11,454 nucleotides of DNA from Promethearchaeota archaeon (GCA_048940445.1 JBHLON010000067.1:1-11454), one strand, 5' to 3'; positions 1-11,454 are shown, counted from the stretch's first letter. Numbers and translations: made by a program. Notes: a model not told the origin generated them from the letters alone.

Positions 1-1323
1 TTTATCTCTTGGCTTTGTAGCTTTTCCATATACCCTTTTTTCAAACTTAAGATAAAATATTGGAGATTTTCTATTTCCTATTTTAGTTAAATATCCTTCT
101 GTGAGTATAAAAAGATTCAATTTTTCTTGCAAATCTGCTTCACCAATGGTAATAATCTCTTTAGCTGTACGAGAACTTACTCTAACAAAATTTTCCTGTA
201 AGAAAGCTGAAACTGTAAAGTTTTCTGATTTTGCGAGGAGGTCCTGTAAATCTCCAATATTAGTAGATGAGGGATGTGGTTTAGCATATTTAGGTTGCCT
301 TGGAAAGGATGATACTAATCTTCGATAGATGAATTCTTCTCCATACGGATCAATGAAAATAAGTGTTACGTGGGGATTCATTAAAGCAGTTTCTTTTATA
401 TAAGTATCTACATAACCCCTAACATATTTAACATTTAAATAATTTAATTTGATGTACGTTCCATGAAGGAAAGGGCTATCAACTTCAGTAGGGTGAACCA
501 AATATTTTTTTTCATTTTTGGATGTTGTGAAAAATTCGGAAACCGAACCATAAATCATATCAGACGTTTTCGATACAGCAATGATTGGCTTTCCAGTAGT
601 ATTTTGGGCATCACTAAAGGCACTAGGAGCTCCAAATCCTTGACTTCCTCTAGTTTGTTTTAACTCAACGCTTTTTGAAGAGGCTAAATACTTTCCAAAT
701 TTTCGTAAATCAGCTTTACCCATACCTATTCCATTATCAAAGATTTCGAATGTATAATTCATTACATTCTTTTGACTTAATTCAGAAGTTAAGAAAGATG
801 GTGCTTCATATTCTCTTAAGCGGATTATCACAATTGGTTCAATATCTACAATATTTGTTACAGGTTTAATGATTTCATTCATGTCATCTACAATTTTTCT
901 AACTTCCTCTTCAACTTCCAGTTGAGCCTTATCAACAATTTCTCCTGATTTTTCTTCCTTATCATCAAGAAGATATTCACGCTCATTGGCTGCTTTTAAT
1001 TGGGAACCCTCTATTTCTTGCATTAATGCTTCTTTTGCCTCATTATTTAATGGTTGTATCTTTTCATCTTCTTCTATTTCCTGTACAATTGAGAGATTTT
1101 CTAGTGATAGTTCTTGATCTAACGAAAATTTGATTTTAGAGTTACCAGCATCCAATTCACTCCATTGAAATGTTTCAATTGCATCTAATGCATTATCTAA
1201 AAACTCAGCTGTATATTGTGTATGCTTCCAGTATCCAAATTCGAATCCAACTAATTGAGTTCGCTTACGCATAAATTGAGCAATTGTACCTTGCGTTATT
1301 CGACCATCCTCTTCAGAACTCAC
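1..1323 (-). CDS. top6B: DNA topoisomerase VI subunit B, 3'-truncated at window edge (441 codons in window), with a large acidic insertion
   Basis: Hand translation gives an open frame from GTG 1323 (alternative GTG 1335; in-frame TAA at 1339-1341) to base 1. It contains the GHKL motifs AEFLDNALDA (N-box), FDNGIGM (G1), KQTRGSQGFG (G2) and HGTYIKL (G3), the Top6B-typical ETALMNPHVTLIFIDPYG and AKPHP, and an H2TH start FLQENFVRVSSRTAKEII. Confidence 0.95.
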   Translation of the reverse strand, partial: MSSEEDGRITQGTIAQFMRKRTQLVGFEFGYWKHTQYTAEFLDNALDAIETFQWSELDAGNSKIKFSLDQELSLENLSIVQEIEEDEKIQPLNNEAKEALMQEIEGSQLKAANEREYLLDDKEEKSGEIVDKAQLEVEEEVRKIVDDMNEIIKPVTNIVDIEPIVIIRLREYEAPSFLTSELSQKNVMNYTFEIFDNGIGMGKADLRKFGKYLASSKSVELKQTRGSQGFGAPSAFSDAQNTTGKPIIAVSKTSDMIYGSVSEFFTTSKNEKKYLVHPTEVDSPFLHGTYIKLNYLNVKYVRGYVDTYIKETALMNPHVTLIFIDPYGEEFIYRRLVSSFPRQPKYAKPHPSSTNIGDLQDLLAKSENFTVSAFLQENFVRVSSRTAKEIITIGEADLQEKLNLFILTEGYLTKIGNRKSPIFYLKFEKRVYGKATKPRDK

Positions 1324-1331
1324 CTTTTCCT

Positions 1332-1338
1332 TCACCTT
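1332..1338 (-). promoter_or_regulatory. Shine-Dalgarno-like AAGGTGA upstream of top6B
   Basis: The minus strand reads AAAAGGTGAAGGAAAAG-GTG. AGGTGA matches the archaeal SD core (GGAGGTGA) and lies 8 nt before GTG 1323. Confidence 0.5.
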
Positions 1339-1558
1339 TTAATTTTCAATACATGAATATAAAAATCTAATATAAATACTTACACATTTGTTGTATATAA
1401 GAAAATAATATTATTTAACCACAAGGGTATTAGAGTTTATCTAATAAACCCGGTTATCTATATAACATGTATTTTTTCTTTCATTTTGAAAAGAAATTGA
1501 ATTACTATTTAAATATTTTTATATACCTAAAAAAGTGTAAATAATGGAAATTTTAAAG

Positions 1559-2836
1559 TTACTTATGCATTTTATGATAATTTTCAATAGCAACATCTAA
1601 AATTCTAGAAGCAACATACCTTTTAGTAGACTTTTCAACATGAGTAATATGCTTTTCTTTATCAACTATATAGACTTCGTTATCTTTGCTTCCAAATCCA
1701 ATATCTTCCCTACCAATATCATTTGCTACTATCAATTCAATTTCGGATTTTAATAATCTATTATATGCTCTTTCTATTAATTGACTTCTGGATACATTAG
1801 TTTCTGCTTTAAACCCTATAATATAAACCTTATAGTTTTTTCTTCTTGCCTCGTCAATTATTTTTGGGGTCAGTCTCATGTTTACTTGTAGTTCCTTTAC
1901 TTCATCTGAAGAAATTTTTCCTTCAATGCATTCTGTGGGTTTATAATCACTAATTGCTGCTGCTGAAATAAAAAGATTATAATCTTTAGATGATAGTTCA
2001 CTTTTCACAGCATTGATAAAATCATCTGTTGTTTCTACGTTTAATGTAGTTATATATTCAGGAATCTTTACCATGCACTCACCAGCAATCAACAATACAT
2101 CAGCACCTCTAGCAGCAGCCTCTTTAGCCAATTCAATACCCATACGCCCTGAAGATCTATTTGATACAAATCTCACCTTATCTATTGCTTCTCTTGTTGG
2201 TCCTGCAGTGATTAAGACTTTCATGCCTTCATAATCCTTTTTAGCTATTAATAAATCGATAACCCGGTCAATAATATCATCTAACTTCGCGATTTTAGCC
2301 TTTCCTTCGGAGAGTCTGGGACCAAGTATGTCTATACCATATTTTTTCAATTTGGTTATGTTATTTTCTATAATTGGATGTAACATGCTCTCATGCATAG
2401 CTGGTACTATTACAATTGGTATTGAAGATCCTAATGCTGTTGATACTACTGTCGTCACCGGAGTATCGTCTATTCCATTAACAATTTTCGAAATCGTATT
2501 TGCTGTGGCAGGACAAACTAATATTAAATCTGCTTTTCCTGCAGCATTGGGTCGATATCCTGCTAGAAGCACATGTTCAACTTTACCAGTTAATTTAACG
2601 ATAGCTGGATTACCTGTTGCCCAATGCATCAGCGATGGGTTTATCAATTCAGTTGCTGCTTTAGATAACACTGGAATTACTTCAGCACCTAATCGCATTA
2701 GCTCTCTTGCTATGATTGGAGCATTTATAATTGCAACTGAACCAGTTAAACACATACATATCGTTTTTCCTCGTAAGATAGTACCTTTTGTTTCAATTAT
2801 ATCTTTTGAAGGATGATGGAATTTCTTTTTATCCAT
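1559..2836 (-). CDS. coaBC: Bifunctional phosphopantothenoylcysteine decarboxylase / phosphopantothenate-cysteine ligase (archaeal Dfp type)
   Basis: Flavoprotein domain motifs LTGSVA, VEHV, PATANTISK and PAMHESM. CoaB domain motifs LITAGPTREAIDKVRFVSNRSSGRMG, AAAISDY, GFKAET and IVANDI. Archaeal-type HPSKDI N-terminus. Confidence 0.97.
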   Translation of the reverse strand: MDKKKFHHPSKDIIETKGTILRGKTICMCLTGSVAIINAPIIARELMRLGAEVIPVLSKAATELINPSLMHWATGNPAIVKLTGKVEHVLLAGYRPNAAGKADLILVCPATANTISKIVNGIDDTPVTTVVSTALGSSIPIVIVPAMHESMLHPIIENNITKLKKYGIDILGPRLSEGKAKIAKLDDIIDRVIDLLIAKKDYEGMKVLITAGPTREAIDKVRFVSNRSSGRMGIELAKEAAARGADVLLIAGECMVKIPEYITTLNVETTDDFINAVKSELSSKDYNLFISAAAISDYKPTECIEGKISSDEVKELQVNMRLTPKIIDEARRKNYKVYIIGFKAETNVSRSQLIERAYNRLLKSEIELIVANDIGREDIGFGSKDNEVYIVDKEKHITHVEKSTKRYVASRILDVAIENYHKMHK

Positions 2837-2913
2837 ATTATAACATCTACTAATTGAGTCTATATACCTATTAGAATTATCTTTTTAATTTAAAAATAAT
2901 TAATGTATTTTTT

Positions 2914-3678
2914 TCATTTTAAAGAAAATTCAAATAATTGATCTTGAATTTTATTTTTTATTTCTTTTGAAAGGTTATATAAAGTTTCCTCAGGAATGTG
3001 TTTTAAGTATTCAATTAAGTCTCTTTCTATCATTGGACCTAACTTATTCATAAATTTTTCAATAACATGATGTTTTCTTAGATGCAAATTCTTATAAGTC
3101 TGTATATAGGCTCGATTCAGACTCTCAAGCCATCTTTTACCTTTTTTCTCCAGATCTGTAATTACTTGTATTGAATTTGAGGCGTTAAAGTTAGTGAATT
3201 CATATTTATATCGAATTAGTATTCGTTTAAGGTAGTTCATAATATTCTCTTTCTCAATTGGACTTAAATTTGCATTAGAATTAAGAAAAATAATAATCAT
3301 ATATTTATTAAACAAAAAATTAATTTGGATCTTGATATTGGAGCCATAAATCTCGAGATGAGATAAATTCTGAATATTAGTTTGTGTAGCAAAGACTTTA
3401 AGCGAGCTAAAATACATTGATATAAGATCGACTTCAAGAAATGAAGTATCTTGAGTAATATATGCTTTTATTGGTCTATAGTTGCTATTCTCATCTGAAT
3501 CATGTTCAAGTATCATAAGGGTATTCCCATATTGATTTGCAATGATAATTCCTATTATAGGGGGTATTTTATCAAAACCTTTAGATTTATAAGCAGAATT
3601 AACTAAAGTCTCTTCAATATTTGCAAAATTGTTCTGATTCTTATTTCCCTCGTTAAGATGTTGTTCTTTAATAGTCAT
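2914..3678 (-). CDS. Longin-like domain protein (Asgard-type eukaryotic-signature fold) with C-terminal helical extension
   Basis: The 254-aa ORF follows the longin order beta-beta-alpha-beta-beta-beta-alpha: IIGIIIANQYGNTLMI, DLISMYFSSLKVFATQT, LSHLEIYG, IKIQINF, YMIIIFLN, then a helix ending ILIRYKYEF. Recognised by pattern only; no HMM was run. Confidence 0.65.
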   Translation of the reverse strand: MTIKEQHLNEGNKNQNNFANIEETLVNSAYKSKGFDKIPPIIGIIIANQYGNTLMILEHDSDENSNYRPIKAYITQDTSFLEVDLISMYFSSLKVFATQTNIQNLSHLEIYGSNIKIQINFLFNKYMIIIFLNSNANLSPIEKENIMNYLKRILIRYKYEFTNFNASNSIQVITDLEKKGKRWLESLNRAYIQTYKNLHLRKHHVIEKFMNKLGPMIERDLIEYLKHIPEETLYNLSKEIKNKIQDQLFEFSLK

Positions 3679-3780: not shown

Positions 3781-6153
3781 TTAAATAGATTGAAGTTCGG
3801 AAATGAGTAATGGTATATTTAGTTTTCTAGCAAATTTTTCGATCTTATTGAAAAGCTCTTGAGATATTATCTCTTTTTTTTCTAAATTCAGAATTTTCAC
3901 GAATTTTCTGCCATAATAGGTTTTTTTGAGATTTGAAATATTATATCGTATCGTACCTTCTTCAAATGATTTATATATTTTTGAAGTTTCTAATTCTTCT
4001 TTTCTTATTTTAACAATTTCATCGGAGTATTTCATAAACGAAGTATTTCTCATCTTCTTTAGATTAAATATATCAGTAGAACCTAATTCCTTTTTATTTA
4101 AGGATTTATTTATAAAAGAATGAATTTCATTTAACAATTCTATTTTAAACTTTTTAAGGGGAAGATCTTCCGACAATAATTTTTTAATTATTCTAGTATA
4201 TGGAATGTCTATGCCTGCCAATTCTGTCGTCAAATTTAATAACGCTAATATTTGATTAGTTCTCTCTTCTGGATTTAACTTTAACTGGTTAAAGGTATAT
4301 TCTCTTTCTTGATTTATGAAATTAAATAGAAATTTTCTGAAAGCTTTTATAAATTGATTATAATTTGGGATAAATGATTTATTAGGATTATTATATATTT
4401 CGTCATCTGCCTCGAAAGGTGTGATTTTTTTCTTTAGAACTAAACTTACTACAGATAAAGGGTAATAGCCTTCAATAAATTCCATACCTTTGGAGACACT
4501 ATTTATTGCATCTTTTATTGAGCATTTTGTTATAACATCTATCGTTTTAATAATATTGCCTTCTATTTTAACTGGATTTTTCTGGCAATAACATAGATCG
4601 AAAGGTTTTAAATCATGGAATAATGGATTGTTTTGATCGGGAATTATGACTTGGGATCCGTAGGCATTTACAATGTTAGTGTGTTGAGGCTTACTTGCTA
4701 AATCCCATTCAATTATGATTACATTATTAATATTTAAAAATGCTTGAAATGTATCATAACTATTATTAGTTGGTTTAGATATCAAGGAAAAAGAATCAGC
4801 AAGATTTATATTATAGTCTTCTTGTTCTCCCCAAAATTGATTTTTATAGTAAAAAACATCGGGAAAATTCGTTAGGTCATCAAGGAACAATTCATTCATA
4901 ATATGATAATTAATTCCAATTTCAGATGATTTAATATTGGAATCATCTAATCCATAGAAACCGATATGCTTTATTATATAATTATAAACAGGAATGCTAA
5001 AATTATCTTTATCATGACTTACAAGATAGGTGTTTCTCTTTTTTCTAAAATTAACATGCGCTTTTTTTATATGATGACGATCTATGAGATATTTTAAAAA
5101 TGCAAATTTCTTTAAATAAATTTTTCTCTTTAACTCTCTGATTTCAACCTTATATTTTTTATATGCGTCGATATAATCTGTTTTGGGAATATTAAATATT
5201 TCAAATTGATTTTTCATTAACTTGATCTTTTCTATTATAGAAAAACTTTCAATCTCAGTTAAAAAGTAGTCTAAAATCTCTCTTTTAAACGATTGTTGTT
5301 CTTCAAGTTTCACTGCTTCTTTAAAAGAAGGATTTAATGCGCTTAAAGTTTCAAAGTTCTTTATTATGAAAAAGTTTGAGAAGTATTTTTCATTAAAATC
5401 TTTAGATTTAGCCATTTCTAGAAGCTTGTCAATCAAAGACGTCAAAAAAGACGTATTCTTAAATTGATATACTTGAAGGATCCTATCAATAAATTCAATG
5501 ATTCGAAGTATATCATAAAAAGAATATAACGATACTGTTCTTAAAATAAGTTTATAGGCTTTTTCAATATAATTATTATATTTTACTAGATATTCAGCCA
5601 AACCATTTTCATAACAATTTTTAAGGAATTCAAATAATTCAATGAATAAATTATTTTCTAGTGCTATCTTAAGGAACTTCTCAATAATCGGTTCACATTC
5701 ATATTGATTAATAATTGCCTTGTTTAAATAATTTAAGCCTTCTACATAATTTTTATCCCCTAAACAAGAATTTGCTAAGTTTAAAAAATTATCACTTTTT
5801 TTTCTAGCACCGAAATCTTCAGAGGTTAAATTATATTTCTTTATATTATTTAAAATCTTTAAAGATAATCTTTCTTTTAAAATAAGTAGTATTTTTAATA
5901 AATGAATACATATTTTATCTTCTAATTGCGTATGTATCAAAAATGTAGGACAATCATGAAAGATCTCTAAATTTGTTTCATCTATAATTATATGGAATTC
6001 ACGATCCTCATCTGAAATAATAGCTTTTATAACAACTGGATCCTCATCTAACTGAATTATAGTTATTTTATTAATTGGAAATTCAGATGATTTTTTGTAT
6101 AAATTTAATCCAAATTTACTTATTACCAATTCGGACAAAGACTTGTTATCCAT
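3781..6153 (-). CDS. SWIM zinc-finger-like protein with TPR-like/helical region and uncharacterised C-terminal domains (790 aa)
   Basis: An N-terminal beta-rich segment leads to H66-D-C68-x13-C82-I-H84-LLKILL (SWIM consensus CxC-xn-CxH). A TPR-like unit follows (FLNLANSCLGDKNYVEGLNYLNKAI). The start is 4 nt after the vWA gene stop. Confidence 0.7.
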   Translation of the reverse strand: MDNKSLSELVISKFGLNLYKKSSEFPINKITIIQLDEDPVVIKAIISDEDREFHIIIDETNLEIFHDCPTFLIHTQLEDKICIHLLKILLILKERLSLKILNNIKKYNLTSEDFGARKKSDNFLNLANSCLGDKNYVEGLNYLNKAIINQYECEPIIEKFLKIALENNLFIELFEFLKNCYENGLAEYLVKYNNYIEKAYKLILRTVSLYSFYDILRIIEFIDRILQVYQFKNTSFLTSLIDKLLEMAKSKDFNEKYFSNFFIIKNFETLSALNPSFKEAVKLEEQQSFKREILDYFLTEIESFSIIEKIKLMKNQFEIFNIPKTDYIDAYKKYKVEIRELKRKIYLKKFAFLKYLIDRHHIKKAHVNFRKKRNTYLVSHDKDNFSIPVYNYIIKHIGFYGLDDSNIKSSEIGINYHIMNELFLDDLTNFPDVFYYKNQFWGEQEDYNINLADSFSLISKPTNNSYDTFQAFLNINNVIIIEWDLASKPQHTNIVNAYGSQVIIPDQNNPLFHDLKPFDLCYCQKNPVKIEGNIIKTIDVITKCSIKDAINSVSKGMEFIEGYYPLSVVSLVLKKKITPFEADDEIYNNPNKSFIPNYNQFIKAFRKFLFNFINQEREYTFNQLKLNPEERTNQILALLNLTTELAGIDIPYTRIIKKLLSEDLPLKKFKIELLNEIHSFINKSLNKKELGSTDIFNLKKMRNTSFMKYSDEIVKIRKEELETSKIYKSFEEGTIRYNISNLKKTYYGRKFVKILNLEKKEIISQELFNKIEKFARKLNIPLLISELQSI

Positions 6154-6157
6154 AATT

Positions 6158-8659
6158 TTAAAATCTTGACTTAATAATTTCAGATATCAATTTGGGAAAT
6201 TCATTCCAATCTTTTATGGTAAGAAGCTGCCCTCCAGCTACTTTAACCATTTTCTTAGCATCTTTTAAGCTATATGAAGTTTCAGGACAAATCAAAATAA
6301 AGTCTACTCCCAAAGAACGCATTATTCTAATCTCTTCAATTCCATCACGAAGATCGAATATTTCTGCATCTGTAAATAACACATTTAATTTTTCACGAGA
6401 ACTTGAATATTCTTTAAACTGCTTATTAGCCCATTTGAGAGCACTCTGAATTCTTGTCCCTCCTCTCGCACTAACAGAAAGCAATTCATCAGCTAGTTGT
6501 TCTAAATCAACTTTTTCATTCAATTCCTTTAAAACATGAGTATCTGATTCAAAAAAAGTTACTCCAAATTCATCTTTACGCATACCATAACATAGCATAG
6601 TTACACAAATAGTCATATAAGCTAGTTTATCTCCTGACATTGAGCCACTAATATCTAATTCAAAACAACAAGATCGAAGTCCCTTTGCAGTCTCAAAAAC
6701 ATAAAAGTCATCATAATTTATGTGATCTAATTCCTTTCCTTTTTCTAATAGATTAAAAATAGTTTCTTCTAAATCTATATTTTCAAAGTCATCTCCGATA
6801 GTATATGGTCTTACTATGTTAATTGGGATAGGTCCGGTCGTAGCAGACCCTAAGCGAGCTCTAGAATAATATATACCTAACTCCACTAGTATTTTTTTTG
6901 CCAACTCTTTAACTTTCTGTCTTGTATGTTCTGGTAAAGTTTTACGGTGAATAAACCATTGTTTGAGTAAATTCTCGCCACTGCCAGCCGACAAACACGA
7001 AATAGTTTTTTCTTGTCCTTCTTTTCCTCCAATTTGCTGTGCTGCTTTCAAAGTTTCGCCTAAATTAAAATGACCTAAAGCAGCTAATGCTTCTCTATTA
7101 TCATTAGCTAAGGCACTACTGATTAATTCTTTAACCCGATCATAATTCAATTGATCTTTTACCTGATTGATTAAATTTGAGATTCTTTGAAAATCTCCGA
7201 TCTTTTTATCAATCATCTTTTTTAATAATTGATAGTTAGGTTCAATTAATTCAAAAATCTCTTCATCAGACATATTGAGTTTTTTTCCAATATCTTTAAT
7301 CATATCTGACTCTGGGTTCAAACCAATTTTTCTAAAAAATTCAAGAGCATTTCTAAGTTGTTCTGGAGTTTCACAAACTTCTAAAGTTTGTTTCATTAGG
7401 TTAGGGATTTGTTGAGCCATTTTTTGACTACAATGGATATTTGCACAACTATTCGCTAATTGTTGTAGGTGATGAGTTAGTGATTTAAATGCTTCAGGTT
7501 TTACTTTTTGTTTCATTGCATCTTCGATCGCGTTTTGAAGTGATTGATTAAATAGGTCATTCCATGATTTATCTGCAAATGCATTTTTAGTCAAACTTTC
7601 AAGAGATAAATTATTTTTGGAATTATGAAATTGCTCTTGAATTTTCTTTAACAGTTCCATTCGTATATTTGTTCCAAAATATTGATCTAAGGAGTTAGCT
7701 AGATTAAAATTATACTCAAAAGAAGAACTTTTTAATGAATTATTCATTACTTTTTGAAGATCAAATTGCGGAGTTTCCCCCAGTGTTTTTGCAGCATTAA
7801 ATAGTTGGTCTAAATTTGTGATTTGATTATGAAGTTGATTTTTAATATCTTTCAATTGATTTTTTATTTTGTTACTTTCAATAGTTTCATCTAAATATTT
7901 CATTGTTTGCAAAAGATCATTAACTTTGTTGTTTTTGATTAAGTCTTCTAACTCAGAAGTAATATCTTGATTTTCAAGCGCCTTAGCAGTAATTTTTTCC
8001 CATTCGCGAAGAGATTTCGATTGTATTAATTCATTTAAACCCAATTTAACTCCTGCTTCTATGTCATCTGGTTCTAATGAGTTAATTTTTTGTTCTAAAC
8101 GATCTTTTGCTTCTTCAATTAATTTTTCTAGTGATGAAATCTCCTCTTTATATAACTCAGAATCTTCGTTAAAAAAGTGCAATGCTGATTTATATGGTTC
8201 TTCTTCTCGTTTTTGATTCAAATCATTAAAAAATTCTTCTAATTCTAGAATTGATTCTTGATCAATCGATTTTGAAAATTCTATTTCATCTATTTCATCT
8301 TGAATTTGATCTAATTCTGATCTAATTTCACCAGAAACAATCTCATCATTAAATTCTTCTTTTGGTTCTTCATCACTAGGAAAAAATGACCCGAGCATAT
8401 CCTTCTTATAATTAGGAAAGAGGATTTCAAAAGCAATTTCCTTTGCTAGTTGTTGATTATCAGGAAAAGAGGTAACAGTGCTGATTTCTATATAATCATT
8501 TGGAGTCACTTTCCCAATTCTATAATATCGCGATAAAATTAATCTCGGAATTGAAAGAACTTGTCGTGAAGATGGAATTTGTACTATATCTGGATGACTT
8601 CTCATCTTTCTAATAAAATCAACGGCAAATTCACAGGGATTTTCTGGAAACACATGCAT
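6158..8659 (-). CDS. vWA (MIDAS) domain protein, MoxR partner: N-terminal AAA+-lid-like domain, long helical middle, C-terminal vWA
   Basis: Complete MIDAS motif: DISGS (DxSxS, D669), GGT and LFTD. It is preceded by VRPYTIGDDFENIDLEETI, which resembles the pre-vWA segment of DUF58/CoxE/chelatase-D-type proteins. The gene lies directly downstream of a MoxR ATPase. Confidence 0.9.
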   Translation of the reverse strand: MHVFPENPCEFAVDFIRKMRSHPDIVQIPSSRQVLSIPRLILSRYYRIGKVTPNDYIEISTVTSFPDNQQLAKEIAFEILFPNYKKDMLGSFFPSDEEPKEEFNDEIVSGEIRSELDQIQDEIDEIEFSKSIDQESILELEEFFNDLNQKREEEPYKSALHFFNEDSELYKEEISSLEKLIEEAKDRLEQKINSLEPDDIEAGVKLGLNELIQSKSLREWEKITAKALENQDITSELEDLIKNNKVNDLLQTMKYLDETIESNKIKNQLKDIKNQLHNQITNLDQLFNAAKTLGETPQFDLQKVMNNSLKSSSFEYNFNLANSLDQYFGTNIRMELLKKIQEQFHNSKNNLSLESLTKNAFADKSWNDLFNQSLQNAIEDAMKQKVKPEAFKSLTHHLQQLANSCANIHCSQKMAQQIPNLMKQTLEVCETPEQLRNALEFFRKIGLNPESDMIKDIGKKLNMSDEEIFELIEPNYQLLKKMIDKKIGDFQRISNLINQVKDQLNYDRVKELISSALANDNREALAALGHFNLGETLKAAQQIGGKEGQEKTISCLSAGSGENLLKQWFIHRKTLPEHTRQKVKELAKKILVELGIYYSRARLGSATTGPIPINIVRPYTIGDDFENIDLEETIFNLLEKGKELDHINYDDFYVFETAKGLRSCCFELDISGSMSGDKLAYMTICVTMLCYGMRKDEFGVTFFESDTHVLKELNEKVDLEQLADELLSVSARGGTRIQSALKWANKQFKEYSSSREKLNVLFTDAEIFDLRDGIEEIRIMRSLGVDFILICPETSYSLKDAKKMVKVAGGQLLTIKDWNEFPKLISEIIKSRF

Positions 8660-8670
8660 TAAGAAATGAT

Positions 8671-8676
8671 CCTCCT
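8671..8676 (-). promoter_or_regulatory. Shine-Dalgarno AGGAGG overlapping the MoxR stop codon
   Basis: The minus strand reads GCA-TAG-GAGGATCATTTCTTA-ATG. AGGAGG overlaps the TAG and lies 11 nt before the vWA start, consistent with translational coupling. Confidence 0.6.
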
Positions 8677-9616
8677 ATGCTCCTAATGTTTTATGAATAA
8701 CATTATCAATAATAGTTTCAACCCTTATACCTGGTTTTGGCTTAATACTTCCTAATAATACATATTTTGAGATTTCAGAAAGGTATTCATAAACAGAAGC
8801 ACTTTCTCCAATTTTTCCTTCTCTTTCAAGGAAACGCCTTCTAGCTAACATCTTAGCAATAGCGATTCCAGCTCTAATTGATGCTGGAACTTCAATATCA
8901 ATCTTATTTCTCCTAGTTTCATCAATTATTGAATAAATTAATTCTAATTCCGATTCTTCAATAGTAAAATGCTCTGGAAGATTAATTCGTATAATATCTA
9001 ATTCAGTAGTTTTATCTGGATATGTTAATTTTATCCAGACCTTGATTCTGTCTTTTAGAGCTTCTGAAAGACGATGAGTTCCAGATAGTTCTTCTGGATT
9101 CATGGCAGAAATAAAGAAGAAATCATCATCGGCTTTAATCCGCCCTAAGTGTGGAATACCTATTGAAGCTTCTTCTAAAGGCTCTAAAAGCGTGTTTTGT
9201 GAATATTCTGTAGCACGGTTAATTTCATTAGCTAAAAATGTGCCTCCTTCTAACATCGCACTGAGTAATGGACCTGGATTAAATGCTTCAAGAACAAAAC
9301 CTTTTTTTAAAGTTATGGCAGGATCAAAAGACCCTATAAAATGAGAAGGTTTTATACTTTCATCCATAGTCATCCAATAAAAACTCCTATTTTTATTCTC
9401 TTTAGCTCTTAGACTCGCGAAATATCTACACAAAATAGTTTTTCCAACTCCTGGTGGGCCAACTAAGGCAGGAAATAAACCAGTGGCCTCTGCATCTCTT
9501 AATAGTTCCAAGGCTTTTCCATATTGTCCAGACAAGACGATATTAATACTTTCTTCAGTAATATCTTTGATAAGATGTTGACTAAATAGTTGCTCAAAAT
9601 TTTCTTTATTAATCAT
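8675..9616 (-). CDS. MoxR-family (CbbQ/NorQ/GvpN-like, AAA_5) AAA+ ATPase
   Basis: Walker A GPPGVGKT, helix-2 insert ending FNPGPLLSAM, Walker B variant FLANEINRA, QNTLLEPLEE, pre-sensor-1 hairpin, sensor 1 SAMNP, Arg finger LSEALKDR, and a lid with sensor 2 ASIR. Confidence 0.93.
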   Translation of the reverse strand: MINKENFEQLFSQHLIKDITEESINIVLSGQYGKALELLRDAEATGLFPALVGPPGVGKTILCRYFASLRAKENKNRSFYWMTMDESIKPSHFIGSFDPAITLKKGFVLEAFNPGPLLSAMLEGGTFLANEINRATEYSQNTLLEPLEEASIGIPHLGRIKADDDFFFISAMNPEELSGTHRLSEALKDRIKVWIKLTYPDKTTELDIIRINLPEHFTIEESELELIYSIIDETRRNKIDIEVPASIRAGIAIAKMLARRRFLEREGKIGESASVYEYLSEISKYVLLGSIKPKPGIRVETIIDNVIHKTLGA

Positions 9617-9891: not shown

Positions 9892-10827
9892 TTGACTAAT
9901 AATAATAATTCACAGAAATCATTAATTGGATTTTTTGAAACGAAAAATCAACTAGAAGTGTATCTCTCATCAAAAAGGTATGAAAATAAAAAAAATAAAG
10001 CTATAATAGGAAACCCGCATCCTTTTTTAAAGTGGGCGGGAGGAAAAAGACAATTAATTCGTCAATTAAATAAATATATACCTGATAATTATAATCGTTA
10101 TATTGAACCTTTTGTTGGAGGAGGTGCATTATTTTTCTATCTTTTGCCTTCAAAAGCCATTTTAATTGATAGTAATTTTGAACTGGTTAATTGTTTTAAG
10201 GTTATAAAAGATAATGTTGAGGATTTAATAATATCATTGAAAAAACACAAATATGAAAAAGATTATTATTATAAAATCCGTGCAATGGATAGGAATATAC
10301 AAGTTTATTCAAATTTATCAAATAATGAAAGAGCTTCAAGGACAATCTATTTGAATAAGACAGGATTTAATGGGTTATATCGTGTTAATAGTAAAGGTTT
10401 CTTTAATGTGCCATTTGGTAGACATAAGAACCCAACTATCTGTGATGAAGATAATTTAAGAGCTGTTAATAAGGTTTTAAAGAATGTGAAAATAGTGCAT
10501 GGATCTTTTGAAATGTGTTTAGAATTTGCTGAGAAAAATGATTTTATTTATTTAGACCCTCCATATTATCCCATCTCTGAAACAGCATTGTTTACCAGTT
10601 ATACAAAACAGGATTTTGGAAAAGATTCTCAGCTAAATTTATTCGAAATTTTTAAAAAGTTAGATCAAATGGGATGTATGTTATTATTAAGTAATTCTTA
10701 TTGTGATTTTATATTAGATTTGTATAAGGATTATAAGATTATCAAAATGAAAGCCAAAAGAGCCATAAATTCTGTTTCATCTAAACGGGGTCAGATAAAT
10801 GAAGTATTAGTTACTAATTTCTCATAA
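9892..10827 (+). CDS. dam: Dam/DpnM-family (D12 class) DNA N6-adenine methyltransferase, apparently orphan, with N-terminal extension
   Basis: Motifs PFLKWAGGKRQL, YIEPFVGGGALFF (motif I), YLNKTGFNGLYRVNSKGFFNVPFG (Dam-type target recognition), FIYLDPPY (motif IV), LLSNS and EVLVTN. The TTG start is preceded by AAGGTAA, with an in-frame TAA at 9880-9882. Confidence 0.93.
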   Translation: MTNNNNSQKSLIGFFETKNQLEVYLSSKRYENKKNKAIIGNPHPFLKWAGGKRQLIRQLNKYIPDNYNRYIEPFVGGGALFFYLLPSKAILIDSNFELVNCFKVIKDNVEDLIISLKKHKYEKDYYYKIRAMDRNIQVYSNLSNNERASRTIYLNKTGFNGLYRVNSKGFFNVPFGRHKNPTICDEDNLRAVNKVLKNVKIVHGSFEMCLEFAEKNDFIYLDPPYYPISETALFTSYTKQDFGKDSQLNLFEIFKKLDQMGCMLLLSNSYCDFILDLYKDYKIIKMKAKRAINSVSSKRGQINEVLVTNFS

Positions 10828-10906
10828 TCTTAATAATTTAATATTTACTTTATAACAACAAATCTTTAATTTAATATGAAACCTTATTCTGATTATATAT
10901 AAATAA

Positions 10907-11454
10907 ATGTCTTTTGAGTGGTTAAAGATGCAATTAGAGCAATCATATCCCAATGCATATGATTATAGAATCACTAAGATGAAAAATAAAGTAATTACCG
11001 TACCACATGAATTATGTATTGAAAGGGCAAAACTCTTTACAGAATCATATAAAAAAACTAAAGGAGAACCATCGGTAATTCGTTTTGCGAAAGCTTTAAA
11101 TTACTTTTTGTCTAACATGACAATTAAAATTTGGGATGATGAATTTATCGTTGGAAATCGATGTACTAAATTTGTGGGAACTCCATTATATCCAGAGGTA
11201 CGAGTGGATACAATTGAGTTAGATTTGGATCTATACAGCACACGTGATGTTCAAAAATTCCTAATTTCTGATATAGACAAAGAATTTTTAAAAAATGAAA
11301 TCATTCCGTACTGGAAAATTGAGGAGGATACAGTAAAATCGAGATTTGATTCGTATTTGAGTCCTGATCTATTTGATCTAATGTTAATGATGATCTATAT
11401 TGTAGATGTTAATATTACAAATGGAGTTGGACATTTTTTTCCCGGTCATGAGAA
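10907..11454 (+). CDS. Glycyl-radical enzyme (PFL2 / dehydratase-like branch of the pyruvate formate-lyase superfamily), 3'-truncated
   Basis: Hand translation from ATG 10907 (alternative ATG 10928) is open to the edge: LCIERAKLFTESYKKTKGEPSVIRFAKAL, IKIWDDEFIVGNR, PLYPEV, EIIPYWK, GVGHFFPGHE. This is the characteristic GRE N-terminal pattern. The catalytic Cys and Gly loops lie outside the window. Confidence 0.9.
   Translation, partial: MSFEWLKMQLEQSYPNAYDYRITKMKNKVITVPHELCIERAKLFTESYKKTKGEPSVIRFAKALNYFLSNMTIKIWDDEFIVGNRCTKFVGTPLYPEVRVDTIELDLDLYSTRDVQKFLISDIDKEFLKNEIIPYWKIEEDTVKSRFDSYLSPDLFDLMLMMIYIVDVNITNGVGHFFPGHE

Follow-up and report, generated by a model that had tools for sequence, protein, structure and literature searches.

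An isolated AAA+ lid at the start of an archaeal vWA protein: a possible subunit-mimicking anchor on its MoxR-type ATPase ring

In the window, the 11,454-nt stretch of Promethearchaeota DNA analysed here as a whole, a MoxR-type AAA+ ATPase is encoded next to a vWA protein whose residues 4-82 are an isolated AAA+ small (lid) subdomain. This lid-first layout is a variant of the MoxR-vWA pair of which our literature searches returned no description. In the explanation that we favour, and to which we give about an even chance, the spare lid mimics a subunit and serves as an anchor at the seam of the ATPase ring, through which the vWA protein would gain a second hold on the ring.

Gene order and domain layout

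Close relatives of the segment studied come mostly from genomes labelled Promethearchaeota (Lokiarchaeia), which places the window in an Asgard archaeon. Three genes follow one another on its minus strand: a 313-aa AAA_5/AAA_3 ATPase (8675-9616), the 833-aa ORF of the vWA protein (6158-8659) and a protein of 790 aa that belongs to no known family (3781..6153). A Shine-Dalgarno-like AGGAGG (8671..8676, minus strand) overlaps the ATPase stop codon and precedes the vWA ATG. Stop-codon readthrough from the ATPase into the vWA protein, across a 15-nt gap that is in frame here, was ruled out by the relatives, in which the gap varies from 3 to 23 nt and falls in all frames. A split gene or frameshift artefact was ruled out as well, since the ATPase has a complete lid of its own (about 8684-8956, minus strand) and relatives share the layout. 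The window holds no in-frame P-loop upstream of the vWA ORF.

Within the vWA protein, the lid (8414..8650, minus strand, as are all parts of this protein), recognised by profile, fold and conservation, is followed by a poorly conserved linker (residues 83-130; 8270..8413), which is acidic here (D+E 33%), and by a middle region of variable length (residues 131-600; 6860..8269), which is probably helical judging from its sequence. The conserved segment before the vWA domain (residues 601-660; 6680..6859) is probably a pore-binding 'finger/shaft', by analogy with NorD and CobT (PMC9976466, PMC13036017); a weak, sub-threshold VWA_CoxE match covers residues 628-795. The vWA domain itself (6158..6679), recognised by domain match and conservation, has an intact MIDAS made up of D669, S671, S673, T735 and D764, each of which is at least 93% conserved.

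The 790-aa protein, which has no match in Pfam or NCBIfam, is a candidate client or third partner. Its gene follows the vWA gene in 71 of 80 close loci, an adjacency that is confined to close relatives. Near its N-terminus, an H-D-C...C-x-H motif, SWIM-like and possibly metal-binding, is present in 70 out of 70 homologues. The remaining genes of the window were named by sequence appearance only. On the plus strand (9892-11452) are what are probably genes for a Dam-like DNA adenine methyltransferase and for a glycyl-radical enzyme; in many close relatives, these divergent genes lie upstream of the ATPase. Downstream, on the minus strand (1-3678), are genes for what is probably a topoisomerase VI subunit B carrying insertions, for CoaBC and for an unknown protein of 254 aa.

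Homology and fold of the spare lid

The original prediction had read residues 9-63 as an AAA+ lid pattern that aligns with the lid of the neighbouring ATPase, and deep profiles uphold this. Single-sequence comparison with the neighbour's lid was not significant (BLASTP E 29), nor was hhalign with shallow profiles (E 0.12), and the same two methods gave no significant match to a paralogous MoxR lid. When a 105-sequence alignment of the spare lid was compared with 30 partner ATPases, the homology was established at an hhalign probability of 94% and an E of 1.4e-7. In this register, the P-S-x-R of the spare lid falls on the A-S-I-R of the ATPase and R32 (codon 8566-8564) stands opposite R248; by alignment and conservation, R32 is thus the sensor-2 equivalent, as had been proposed. 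The two profiles agree column by column at R20/R235, S30/S246, R32/R248, L35/I251, L40/M256 and R44/R260.

Searched genome-wide, the two profiles find each other above reversed-sequence controls. Among the 3828 ORFs of its own genome, the lid profile ranks the neighbour ATPase lid second (E 0.014; best reversed-ORF control 0.45), and the ATPase-lid profile ranks the vWA N-terminus fourth, behind three true MoxR lids (E 0.059; reversed control 0.36). In 10 other Asgard genomes, every weak lid-profile match that was examined, with E values down to 9e-7 per genome, was a lid or a lid-like segment belonging to an ATPase, to an ATPase-vWA fusion or to a second lid-first family. The lid segment of the window has no Pfam or NCBIfam match, and two family members weakly match Pfam AAA_lid_2 (best E 0.0096). 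Many close homologues (P0007-P0021 and others) carry a precomputed match to Pfam PF27098. PDB sequence searches gave no relevant match; an apolipophorin match, which spans one helix only, was dismissed.

AlphaFold2 predicts the spare lid as four helices (residues 8-21, 31-48, 53-62 and 66-80) with a pLDDT of 95. They correspond to the ATPase helices that follow alpha5, while alpha5 itself is missing. The segment 9-63 reads as it had been quoted; the domain, however, includes the fourth helix and reaches about residue 82. Against the Atlas MoxR and AAA_lid_2 clusters, the predicted fold gives a TM of 0.70-0.75 over 77-78 residues, which bears out a four-helix lid fold, whereas Foldseek against the PDB returned no match at E 0.001 or better and re-alignment added little. 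For an 84-residue helical domain, this null result is no evidence against a lid fold. The similarity to solved lids is modest (BchI Z 6.3, CbbQ 5.5, NorQ 5.3, with an MCM lid also among these matches; overall Z 5.3-6.3) and interspersed with unrelated bundles. Top rows of the fold comparison such as Doc, DUF507 and cyclins were set aside as common helical arrangements.

Conservation of the spare lid

A deep search of 1.84 billion representatives yielded 120 matches, and in 119 of them the lid segment is located at or near the N-terminus (start within about 45 residues). The long homologues are vWA proteins of about 650-1200 aa, and no N-terminal P-loop was found among 45 of them. A lid lacking a P-loop and followed by an acidic stretch, as originally described, is what the window protein has; strong acidity of the linker (D+E at least 30%), on the other hand, is found in only nine of 39 distant homologues. 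Conservation across the 119 diverse homologues reaches 100% for R32, 99% for R20, 97% for D55, 93% for P29 and 92% for S30. Search bias alone does not explain the invariance of R32, because S31, V34, D24, G49 and P66, which are invariant in the seed, vary freely among the matches.

Among 72 close homologues, identity to the query is 86% in the lid, against 48% in the linker, 62-66% in the middle and 79% in the vWA domain, and the lid is about level with the finger. In the 39 distant homologues, the lid has the highest mean column conservation of the protein, with nine near-invariant residues. Short members (455-540 aa) have mostly lost the middle and retain lid, finger and vWA domain.

These figures bear on the proposal that the lid is a non-functional relic of a ChlD-like ATPase-vWA fusion. 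The relatives do include fusions with the same order of parts, and the window protein is colinear with one of them (residues 9-41 on its lid, 413-766 on its C-terminal part). Descent from an ATPase-vWA fusion is likely on the strength of trees and colinearity, and the two alternatives of the original prediction, docking and a relic of a ChlD-like ancestor, are not exclusive of each other. A mere relic is another matter: because few parts of the protein are as well conserved as the lid, which is also kept in the short forms and retained in a second lineage, this reading is largely excluded by conservation and we regard it as very improbable.

Occurrence and coupling to the ATPase

Of 301 Asgard genomes, 154 contain a match to the lid profile, some of these being weak matches to ordinary lids, and the Atlas cluster of the spare lid is 76% archaeal. 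Lid-first vWA proteins are found in many Asgard archaea and apparently in some bacteria too. The vWA gene directly follows an ATPase gene in 75 of 80 close loci (the remaining five begin too near a contig end), in all 30 of the further Asgard loci and for seven of eight assessable distant proteins. In small trees that are rooted at the midpoint and carry no formal clade test, the lid travels with one ATPase clade (100/99), which is placed beside a group of ATPase-vWA fusions and of ATPases with short lid-free vWA partners, and the lid-first vWA modules cluster together (95/89).

Several loci show other neighbours. In three bacterial-looking ones (L086:1435-4321, L089:2365-5095 and L149:4126-7093), a small gene, an SMC-like ATPase and an unknown protein of 180-210 aa precede the ATPase and the lid-vWA gene; the genes overlap tightly and possibly form a five-gene system. 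Two short lid-first members of 458-479 aa (L145:6001-7440 and L147:5101-7377) are encoded beside 2-oxoacid:ferredoxin oxidoreductase genes at two unrelated loci, one of them without an adjacent ATPase, which may hint at an Fe-S enzyme client or be chance.

A partner ATPase with a cis lid

The ATPase had been taken for a clade-7 motor with a displaced lid and a trans-acting sensor-2, and this part of the original prediction did not hold. Its Arg finger R190 (9049-9047, minus strand) and its sensor-2 R248 (8875-8873, minus strand) are 58 residues apart, versus 61 in CobS and 81 in RavA. Taken as a single body, the whole chain of the ATPase model fits CbbQ (Z 25.6, rmsd 2.5 over 261 residues) and NorQ (Z 23.7, rmsd 2.3 over 250), whereas it fits the domain-swapped CHU_0153 only over residues 22-198 (the large domain), or at an rmsd of 16 Å. 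A trans-acting sensor-2 depends on a pre-sensor-2 insert (PMC6987120), which is absent from CbbQ, dynein and midasin (PMC7973254) and likewise from CobS; the ATPase model has no extra helix that would represent it. The partner's own sensor-2 and Arg finger are kept in 30 of 30 aligned partner ATPases. The partner ATPase is hence of the CbbQ/NorQ type with a cis lid, and not a clade-7 protein in the strict (trans sensor-2) sense. Its Walker B (residues 126-134) reads N-E, with Asn (once Gln) in place of Asp in 30 of 30 partner ATPases, and the other motifs are intact. The Asn-type Walker B is shared by the sister group, whose vWA partners are short (L081, L127, L135, L137, L141), while the fused ATPase-vWA group has E-E and a Walker A of the form G-x-x-G-x-S-K-T.

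Because the ATPases keep their own sensor-2 in a cis arrangement, the ring needs no outside arginine by design, and for R32 to gate hydrolysis, the lid of a subunit would have to be moved out of its place. Such a displacement is what a second explanation supposes: the lid of the seam subunit would swing out and be replaced by the spare lid held on the next subunit, with R32 acting as sensor-2 for that site and the vWA protein gating hydrolysis there. The original prediction had the same idea, though it arrived at it differently. In RavA-type ATPases, the portion given in trans begins just after alpha5, and the spare lid starts at the same point. The idea is also favoured by the invariance of R32 together with S30, P29 and R20, by L35, which retains the hydrophobicity of the invariant ATPase I251 (87%), by a ring and ATP-site architecture that is the same for cis and trans types, and by the mobility of the seam small domain in CobS. 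However, nothing is missing from a cis ATPase with its own sensor-2, its lid would need unpacking from alpha5, and several matching positions are relaxed in the spare lid, hydrophobicity falling from 89% to 21% at I227/A12, from 89% to 56% at I247/S31 and from 100% to 67% at Y228/V13. The relaxed positions would face alpha5 or the nucleotide. We see a swap of lids as possible but unlikely. That the vWA partner would in this way complete the active site, turning one site of a cis-type ring to trans and controlling where ATP is hydrolysed, is an unlikely outcome in our estimation.

A predicted docking site on the ATPase

One ATPase subunit with ATP and Mg was modelled together with the spare lid, along with three controls. 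The complex scored 0.71 and the best of the controls 0.00; in a calibration that is only roughly applicable to a model with its own alignments and a ligand, 58 of 80 solved complexes and two of 110 mismatched pairs attain this mark. Contact agreement between runs was 100% and the partner pLDDT was at least 85. The proposed docking by subunit mimicry is therefore supported by the model. On the lid, the predicted interface comprises residues 30-47, 58-66 and 69, including S30, R32, L40, S64 and Q69. On the ATPase, it comprises residues 34-47, 52, 174, 188-189 and 192-196 (W194 and D41 included); this face is made up of the helix that precedes Walker A, of strand beta5 and of residues on either side of the Arg finger R190. 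The score may stem from the likeness of this arrangement to the contacts between lid and large domain in solved rings, and so it shows likeness and not binding by this copy. From general AAA+ architecture we infer that the docking face is where the lid of the previous subunit sits, so that it would be free only at the seam or at a ring end.

The modelled position is compatible with a swap of lids as such, but no P-loop residues are listed in the interface and the lid lies off the P-loop face of the ATP-bound subunit, which argues against it. The model also bears on a third explanation, in which the lid was redeployed and does not contact the ring, packing instead on the protein's own helical region or binding a client, a nucleotide or nucleic acid. 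The basic surface residues R44 and R47 are conserved, the homologue P0155 has no adjacent ATPase, and intramolecular contacts are possible, given that the lid rather than the full-length vWA protein was modelled. Yet R44 and R47 are each matched by a conserved residue of the ATPase lid (R260 and the Arg at position 263), the complex model passed, and the lid is conserved throughout while the middle region ranges from nearly absent to over 700 residues. A redeployed lid thus appears quite improbable.

The spare lid as a proposed anchor

If the spare lid is an anchor, the ATPase and the vWA protein would form a remodelling machine like NorQ-NorD or CobS-CobT, in which the spare AAA+ lid replaces the usual N-terminal anchor of the vWA partner. 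The lid would dock on the ATPase large domain at the Arg-finger face, as modelled, and at the seam or the end of the spiral it would act as a partial subunit that fastens the vWA protein to the ring and serves as a fixed point. The finger and the vWA domain would be moved in the pore while the MIDAS grips a client. R32 would be retained because it belongs to the subunit-subunit contact that the lid copies, perhaps paired with the invariant D189, and it would affect ATP turnover indirectly, if at all. There are precedents for such a design. NorD and CobT grip the ring at two points: their finger and vWA domain are in the pore, their N-domain is on the periphery. In apo-CobST, an extra small domain is seen near the sixth large domain. 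The homology and fold of the lid, its constraint, the gene coupling, the complex model, the relaxed lid positions and the NorD/CobT precedent together argue for an anchor. Against it stands the strict invariance of the arginine, never replaced by Lys, which one would sooner expect of a residue that binds phosphate than of one in a plain salt bridge. On balance, we put the chance that the anchor is the right account at around a half.

Comparison with known systems

The pair resembles NorQ-NorD, CbbQ-CbbO and CobS-CobT in its adjacent genes and in an ATPase fold with a cis lid, and the partner, like NorD, CbbO and CobT, consists of an N-domain, a flexible linker, a finger (probable here) and a vWA domain with an intact MIDAS. 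It differs from all three pairs in its N-E Walker B. In those systems, moreover, the N-domain binds the small domain of the ATPase, and that of CobT has a peptidase-M48-like fold, whereas the N-domain described here is an AAA+ small domain in its own right and is modelled on the large domain.

Similar to ChlI-ChlD and BchI-BchD, the vWA subunit combines AAA+-derived sequence, a linker and a MIDAS, and ChlD was proposed to replace the sixth ChlI in an I5D ring (PMC13297055). ChlD, however, keeps a whole AAA+ module, about 40% identical to ChlI, and only the lid is present here; BchI has the pre-sensor-2 insert that the partner ATPase lacks. No ChlH/CobN gene was called in 14 annotated loci. Databases automatically label lid-first vWA proteins 'Mg-chelatase subunit ChlD', a label that is misleading, as the protein has no large domain and is not a ChlD. 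RavA-ViaA and other MoxR proteins with the pre-sensor-2 insert share a homologous lid, an S-x-R-type sensor-2 and a vWA partner. In RavA, lid and sensor-2 are supplied in trans from an ATPase subunit (PMC6987120), while the ATPase described here lacks the insert, as its shorter spacing shows. Midasin/Rea1 is the best PDB sequence match of the ATPase profile and likewise has cis lids, a helical linker, an acidic region and a MIDAS domain; it is a single chain of six AAA+ modules, and no ancestry is claimed. Literature searches, with subscription papers mostly outside their reach, returned no description of lid-first vWA partners.

Origin of the lid-first layout

A second lid-first family is found in one Asgard genus. 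It passes the Pfam AAA_lid_2 cut-off at residues 21-77, lacks a P-loop, and clusters (100/100) with proteins in which the AAA-lid-vWA layout is complete. Its open frames of about 650-680 aa (L133:1429-3204, plus strand; L140:1-1767, minus strand; L128 and L129) lie behind a chelatase-like ATPase, with two paralogues per genome, and the same genomes carry the full AAA-lid-vWA version (L130, L142). The simplest reading is that the lid-first layout arose from two independent losses of the large domain from ATPase-vWA fusions. The window vWA protein would accordingly be a likely descendant of an ATPase-lid-linker-vWA fusion that lost its large domain. Asgard fusions with this order of parts, of 636-730 aa, represent a candidate ancestral layout (L123, L124, L126, L132, L135, L136, L144). 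The genome of the window also carries a paralogous pair, an ATPase with a 318-aa lid-free vWA protein (L081:6893-8877, minus strand) next to molybdopterin biosynthesis-like genes, which provides a natural control for lid function.

Implications for MoxR-vWA machines

Recent NorQD and CobST structures show that the finger in the pore is not enough for a vWA partner, which must grip the ring at a second place as well. The family described here apparently builds this second grip out of a part of the motor, and the same seems to have happened independently in another lineage. Lid-first proteins fill the step between ATPase-vWA fusions, ChlD-like subunits and lid-free partners. They also offer a small, soluble two-protein system in which the capping of a ring seam, or the donation of a sensor-2 arginine by a partner, could be tested.
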